NCBI RefSeq assembly: GCF_030013205.1
Contig: NZ_CP122648.1
DNA from: Escherichia coli
GTDB lineage: Bacteria; Pseudomonadota; Gammaproteobacteria; Enterobacterales; Enterobacteriaceae
Length of the DNA stretch: 64,000 nucleotides
Direction: 5' to 3' (one strand)
The notes under the pieces were generated by a model. That model was given only the letters and a program-made list of their open reading frames with translations. It was not told where the DNA came from and did no database searches. Both the position numbers and the translations under genes were made by a program. Below are positions 57,605-58,384 of this stretch, in pieces. Every line of letters starts with the position of its first letter. The first letter of the stretch is position 1.

Positions 57605-58384
57605 AACCTGTTCCTTATTCTGTGAACTTCAGGTGACATTAAAGCTTTACTCCTAATGGAGAAACGACGCAATCCCAACTCAGTCAAACAGGTAAATATT
57701 AGTCTGATTATTAGTAAAGACAATTAATCAATCACTCTCGGTGATCATATGATTTCAACTGTAATTATAAGAAAATAATGTACTGATTCTCCATATTAAA
57801 CAAGTGGTTAATACATGTAAAACATTTTATTAACATTAAGTTGATTGTTGCCTTTCTTTGTATTTAATTAGTTTGTTGTGCGGTAAATGTCTGTTTAAAA
57901 ATAGCTTATCTGGTATTGCATTAAAGCAATTATTTATGGCAGATGATTATTTACGGTGAGTTATTTTAACTGTGCGCAACATCCCATTTCGATTATTCCT
58001 GTTTCATTTTTGCTTGCTAGAGTCGCGAAAAACTTTTTAACAGATTGAAATACACCCAAAACAAAAGTATGACTTATACATTTATGTTAAGTAATTGAGC
58101 GTTTTGTGTGATCTGTATCACACATTATTGAAAATCGCAGCCCCCCTCCGTTGTATGTGAGTGTAGTGACGAGTAAAGTTGCGTCGATTTAGGAAAAATC
58201 TTAGATAAGTGTAAAGAACCCCTTCTATTTGTGAGGACTTATTAAATCCAAAAAAGGGGCTCTGCCTGTTGCAGCTTATCGCAACTATTCTAATGCTAAT
58301 TATTTTTTACCGGGGCTTCCCGGCGACATCACGGGGTGCGGTGAGACCGCATAAAAATAAAGTTGGTTATTCTGGGTGGGAATA
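57605..58384 (+). promoter_or_regulatory. flhDC promoter and long 5' UTR regulatory region, uninterrupted by any IS element
   Basis: 780-bp AT-rich gap between divergent uspC and flhD; position matches the flhDC control region of E. coli; no transposase ORF or IS-like sequence seen. Confidence 0.6.

Follow-up and report, generated by a model that had tools for sequence, protein, structure and literature searches.

An ordinary, IS-free uspC–flhD regulatory region with the flhDC class I promoter in a non-K-12 Escherichia coli genome

The 780 bp that separate uspC from flhD in the 64,000-nucleotide stretch of Escherichia coli DNA analysed here (the window) are, at a probability of roughly 95%, the ordinary IS-free regulatory region of wild-type E. 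coli, holding the flhDC class I promoter. The absence of an IS is real but ordinary, and belongs to the already known biology of a well-studied locus. On this reading the region would contain the class I promoter for flhDC, the flagellar master operon, with transcription starting at about 58186 and a CRP site centred at −71.5; the roughly 480 bp of AT-rich DNA further upstream would be where the literature puts repressor binding, and the 199-nt leader that follows the start site would be where CsrA and small RNAs are known to act. Each of the two sites occupied by IS elements in laboratory K-12 would have been kept as one unduplicated copy, on which no IS has landed, and flhDC transcription would respond to its usual repression and activation inputs, unlike in the partly de-repressed, IS-bearing K-12 stocks. 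The source of the window would thus be a natural, non-laboratory E. coli that keeps the expected upstream control DNA, a result of little wider importance.

The gap between the two genes runs exactly from 57605 to 58384, the 780 bp that the original prediction had given. It lies between divergent uspC on the left and the flhDC operon, which is the position of the flhDC class I regulatory region, and is AT-rich (34.9% GC vs 49.8% across the whole window). The locus comprises:

57176–57604, minus strand: uspC (universal stress protein C), a 142-aa open reading frame (NCBIfam equivalog UspC, E 2e-84)
57605–58384, no strand: uspC–flhD intergenic regulatory region, 780 bp without an IS, colinear with MG1655 minus IS1H and its 8-bp duplication
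58385–58735, plus strand: flhD, 116 aa (NCBIfam equivalog, E 5e-46)
58738–59316, plus strand: flhC, 192 aa (NCBIfam equivalog, E 1e-85)

The left-hand gene is also named uspC in the identical record of strain ETEC4079. The flhD reading frame opens at ATG 58385, with an alternative in-frame GTG at 58376, and is followed by flhC, motA, motB, cheA and cheW. FlhD (WP_001295647.1) and FlhC (WP_001291603.1) have the same accessions as in K-12 W3110. Homology of 57605–58384 to the reference strains K-12, O157, UTI89, CE10, 144 and 14EC001 is full length, at 95–99% identity.

Alignment of the region with MG1655 and W3110, which the original prediction had proposed as its check, finds both laboratory elements lacking in the window and both of their targets empty. 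The MG1655 record has IS1H (768 bp, insA5/insB5) between flhD and uspC, in an intergenic region of 1,555 bp, and its alignment with the window contains a single clean 776-bp gap and nothing more. The MG1655 junctions read ...CATTTATG/IS1/CATTTATGTTAAG, so the insertion consists of IS1 plus an 8-bp target duplication. In the W3110 record an IS5 transposase gene lies in a uspC–flhD gap of 1,978 bp; the junctions are ...GTTAA/IS5/TTAAGTAATTG, and the window is colinear base for base with W3110 minus IS5 and 4 bp. The two targets in the window are:

58079–58086, no strand: CATTTATG, the IS1H target in MG1655, at −107 to −100; one unoccupied copy
58087–58090, no strand: TTAA, a target hot spot for IS5 and its insertion site in W3110, at −99 to −96; single and unoccupied

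No target-site duplication is present at the hot spot, where CATTTATG and TTAA occur once each. Apart from the insertions, 35 positions in the 780 bp separate the window from K-12 (95.5% identity). According to published work, insertion of IS1 or IS5 upstream of flhD raises flhDC expression and motility (PMC5100188, PMC1174868, PMC5493358). The statement in the original prediction that MG1655 carries a motility-raising IS upstream of flhD is accurate: IS1H is seen in the record, and the effect is described in two of these papers (PMC5100188, PMC1174868).

A search for IS-derived sequence bore out the claim that uspC–flhD holds neither a transposase open reading frame nor an IS end, by open reading frames and Pfam, terminal repeats, other repeats and copy number alike. 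The longest stop-free stretch in 57605–58384 is 62 codons, with no transposase reading frame, and among the eight longest (36–62 aa) no transposase or other Pfam family scored meaningfully. Direct and inverted repeats of at least 12 bp are absent from 57400–58600, as are IS1 and IS5 terminal repeats from the whole window with three mismatches allowed. Relative to six IS-free alleles, 57605–58384 contains no inserted DNA. The window also has no IS roughly 100–476 bp upstream of the flhD start site, the arrangement of an IS-activated allele. An Rfam search of 56500–60000 at a permissive E-value returned no family; AsflhD and MotR evidently have no matching Rfam models there.

The 780 bp were matched in 5,421 of 5,426 complete E. 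coli genomes, at a median of one and a maximum of two places per genome, and at least 80% of their length was covered in one place in 5,271. One copy per genome is the opposite of a mobile-element pattern. A 441-bp query spanning cheW and the start of the IS200 served as positive control and gave 15,062 hits, as many as 36 in one genome, with 716 on plasmids. When 72,556 plasmid records (7.3 Gb), a set rich in IS elements, were searched by sensitive word-11 blastn, the 780 bp matched 13, none of them IS-like: seven E. coli records (0.39–4.9 Mb), five from Salmonella (263–500 kb) and one from Bacillus. The one Salmonella record that was inspected has the homologous uspC–flhD locus at the match. 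The Bacillus match, at 2593–3490 of Bacillus thuringiensis CT43 plasmid pBMB0558 (HM037272.1), is E. coli uspC with its upstream region; it is 96.1% identical to the window, the same figure as the K-12 allele, and ends at the W3110/DH10B-type IS5 insertion point. This segment would appear to be DNA of a cloning host that was built into the record at assembly.

We gauged how common the IS-free state is with two 485-bp tiles compared with the 5,426 complete genomes, a design in which the match is broken up by any insertion of more than about 740 bp. The right tile (57900–58384) was uninterrupted in 5,242 genomes and the left tile (57605–58089) in 5,361; insertions of less than about 740 bp, and those lying no more than about 97 bp from either end of a tile, escape these counts. 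Some 4% of genomes thus have an interruption in the region and about 96% are intact. Junction-specific queries found the MG1655 IS1 junction in 60 genomes and the W3110 IS5 junction in 57; since the two together account for 117 of 5,426, their absence is no special feature. Among the W3110-junction matches, 55 were at least 99.5% identical and came from strains whose names or sources are mostly laboratory or K-12 (W3110, MC4100, DH10B, MC1061 and HMS174 among them), and the remaining two were clinical isolates at 86.6% identity. The IS-free arrangement is therefore the norm, and laboratory K-12 strains with the MG1655 or W3110 junction make up about half of the exceptions. As a caution, the IS1 or IS5 that K-12 reference genomes carry ahead of flhD is peculiar to laboratory stocks.

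Now and then a natural isolate also has an insertion in the region. Clinical isolate 2021CK-01361 carries ISKpn26, an IS5 relative, at a W3110-type TTAA junction, and its flhD is annotated shorter, at 327 nt. A natural isolate, O78 strain 3, has IS1A in its leader, some 70 bp before flhD.

The promoter was located by transfer from K-12. In K-12 the annotated AsflhD ends at a point 198 nt before the ATG; with one extra base at 58247 in the window, the start site falls at 58186. This places TTAA at −99 to −96, in agreement with the IS5 hot spot, described as a TTAA target 96–99 bp upstream of the start site (PMC5100188). Counted from there, the elements of the promoter and leader are:

58107–58122, no strand: CRP-type palindrome TGTGA-N6-TCACA, TGTGATCTGTATCACA, centred at −71.5, read from the sequence
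58151–58179, plus strand: putative flhDC class I promoter, with −35 TTGTAT (58151–58156), a 17-bp spacer and −10 TAAAGT (58174–58179)
58186–58384, plus strand: predicted flhDC 5′ untranslated leader, 199 nt (198 nt in K-12), its start site transferred from K-12
58186–58406, minus strand: position equivalent to AsflhD, as transferred from MG1655 annotation b4839

The region has the CRP centre (−71.5) and leader length (~198 nt) of the flhDC class I region, given a start site transferred from K-12. A centre at −71.5 also agrees with the CAP site position reportedly given by Soutourina et al. 1999. The right half of the palindrome is TCACA in the window and in five other non-K-12 alleles; TCACG occurs in K-12 alone. 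A sigma-70 consensus scan found three sites, all on the minus strand and no more numerous than shuffled sequence yields, and did not call the weak flhDC promoter; the hexamers were therefore placed from spacing alone. The antisense RNA AsflhD of K-12 begins at +22 of the flhD reading frame and spans the leader (PMC9600491). Regulators listed for the flhDC region include H-NS, OmpR, LrhA, RcsAB, Fur and IHF (PMC5493358).

With the known cis elements in place, flhDC is probably under native control, as had been proposed, but this lineage has changes of its own in the −10 and the leader. 'Native' need not mean an output equal to that of other wild strains, because the third base of the −10 and several leader positions differ. 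The −10 hexamer is TACAGT in five of the six other alleles (K-12, UTI89, O157, CE10 and 14EC001), and TAAAGT is shared with strain 144 only; the third base is thus A in the lineage of the window vs C in K-12. In the leader, a 51-bp segment (58218–58268, +33 to +83) holds 11 of the 35 differences from K-12 (binomial P about 9e-6 for a fixed window). A comparison of seven alleles maps this patch to both arms of one predicted hairpin (AGA.CCxxUU / AAGGxGG.UCU):

58216–58264, plus strand: predicted hairpin in the leader, +31 to +79, polymorphic, its loop carrying a GGA motif (58235–58237)

One stem pair is A-U in K-12, C-G in the window and a C·U mismatch in O157, and UTI89 closes another mismatch. 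The same stem is predicted in these four haplotypes at differing stabilities: −13.4 kcal/mol in the window, −6.0 in K-12, −6.9 in O157 and −13.6 in UTI89. This GGA-bearing stem may be the second CsrA site. Folding gave weak z-scores, of −1.6 for the hairpin and, over the whole leader, −0.6 in the window and +0.3 in K-12. We dropped the idea of a globally structured leader, as the whole-leader fold was no better than that of shuffled sequence. With four haplotypes and weak z-scores, the predicted hairpin polymorphism is a hint rather than a finding.

The window is not of K-12 origin. It matches the chromosome of ETEC4079 (NZ_CP122643.1, about 2,111,727–2,175,726) with 0 mismatches over the 46 kb compared; ETEC4079 is an enterotoxigenic (ETEC) pig faecal isolate from Belgium. 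The 780 bp are also identical in K_EC180 and other pig ETEC strains, and neither the region nor its neighbours are the K-12 allele. The original prediction had reached a non-K-12 background partly from the missing IS. The background itself holds, on the 35 differences and the identity to ETEC4079, but the missing IS does not serve as a marker on its own, because about 96% of genomes lack one and so does K-12 derivative J53. In J53-p133 the region is exactly MG1655 minus IS1 and one target copy, and one of two variants isolated from an ATCC stock of MG1655 is reported to lack an insertion ahead of flhDC and to have lower motility (PMC1174868). It is the 35 differences in 780 bp, and not the absence of an IS, that exclude K-12.

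The other strain markers named alongside the region were found as described. The porin at the yedS position is uninterrupted (397 aa as annotated), FliC is long at 595 aa, and an IS200C transposase gene begins just after cheW:

63805–64000, plus strand: left end of IS200C, between cheW and tar; a hairpin, then a frame starting MGNEKSLAHTRWNCKYH, running off the window

This transposase is also annotated in the ETEC4079 record. Insertion-free genomes match positions 1–245 of the control query only, which correspond to 63560–63804 of the window, on the cheW side of IS200C. The element occupies cheW–tar in 4 of 5,426 genomes (ETEC4079, two pigeon isolates and one pig isolate); K_EC180, the closest relative by its flhD region, lacks it there. 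Two further observations concern other parts of the window and its relatives. At 24443–25865, beside fliE, the ETEC4079 record annotates an integrase fragment of 123 bp and a DUF5503 gene with a frameshift, apparently the remains of an islet in decay. In K_EC180, araF and araG are annotated as frameshifted pseudogenes (13627–16198), and in the window the corresponding place (51178–53802) holds uninterrupted reading frames of 346 and 519 codons; the K_EC180 frameshifts could be a sequencing artefact or real decay.

Two alternatives would give the apparent absence of an IS a different history, and both seem to us very improbable. The region might hide what is left of a decayed IS, or a miniature inverted-repeat element, diverged beyond recognition; it is AT-rich and non-coding, the kind of DNA where remnants can persist. 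Yet all 780 bp align to six other alleles at 95–99% identity with no extra segments, inverted repeats of 12 bp or longer are absent, and the region is single copy in the genomes matched, with plasmid blastn giving homologous chromosomal loci only. The region might equally be a revertant from which a former IS was excised precisely, rather than the never-inserted ancestral state. Precise excision leaves no mark in the sequence, but a past insertion is hardly called for when both hot-spot targets are single with no duplication scar, the close relatives (K_EC180 and other pig ETEC) carry the identical 780 bp and about 96% of genomes, across all sampled lineages, are uninterrupted. An IS5-bearing strain, moreover, is reported to have given no less-motile revertants in 5,000 colonies (PMC1174868).

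A third alternative accepts the IS-free region and disputes that its control is native: the change from TACAGT to TAAAGT, with the stabilised leader hairpin around GGA, would shift flhDC output with no IS involved. The closest alleles share the −10 substitution and most of the seven changes in the patch (strain 144 has 5 of 7), the differences are strongly clustered and the hairpin is predicted at −13.4 kcal/mol vs −6.0 in K-12 and −6.9 in O157. Against this, the z-scores of the hairpin and of the whole leader are both weak, UTI89 reaches similar stability through a different change, so that the range of stabilities may be neutral, and TAAAGT and TACAGT are equally far from the TATAAT consensus. 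We consider such a shift unlikely, though well ahead of the two insertion histories. Slightly less likely still is the more specific proposal that the pig ETEC/O139:H1 allele is a non-IS route to altered flhDC output, through the −10 change acting jointly with paired substitutions that repair a mismatched leader stem; if it were true, the perfected stem presenting GGA could alter the protection of the mRNA from RNase E. An ordinary wild-type region under its usual inputs remains our preferred reading.

Set beside known alleles, the window departs from the two sequenced K-12 forms at the insertion points and from the IS-free K-12 form by base differences. The sequenced MG1655 allele has flanks homologous to the window on both sides of the insertion point, and carries 768 bp of IS1 and an 8-bp duplication at −107 to −100, both missing from the window. 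The allele of W3110, MC4100 and DH10B has the TTAA target at −99 to −96 in common with the window, which is without its IS5 (1195 bp) and TTAA duplication. The IS-free K-12 form of the uspC (yecG)–flhD region (for example J53 or the ATCC MG1655 variant 'B') shares the flanking genes and the order of elements, and its CATTTATG and TTAA are likewise unoccupied; it is 779 bp long vs 780 bp in the window, and the 35 differences include the third base of the −10, the CRP right half, which is perfect in the window, and the 11-difference leader patch. Salmonella enterica has the same uspC–flhD gene order. Conservation with the window is recognisable near the promoter and in the 3′ half of the leader (69% identity in the last ~280 bp), and no alignment is obtained for the ~500 bp further upstream or for the leader's 5′ part.
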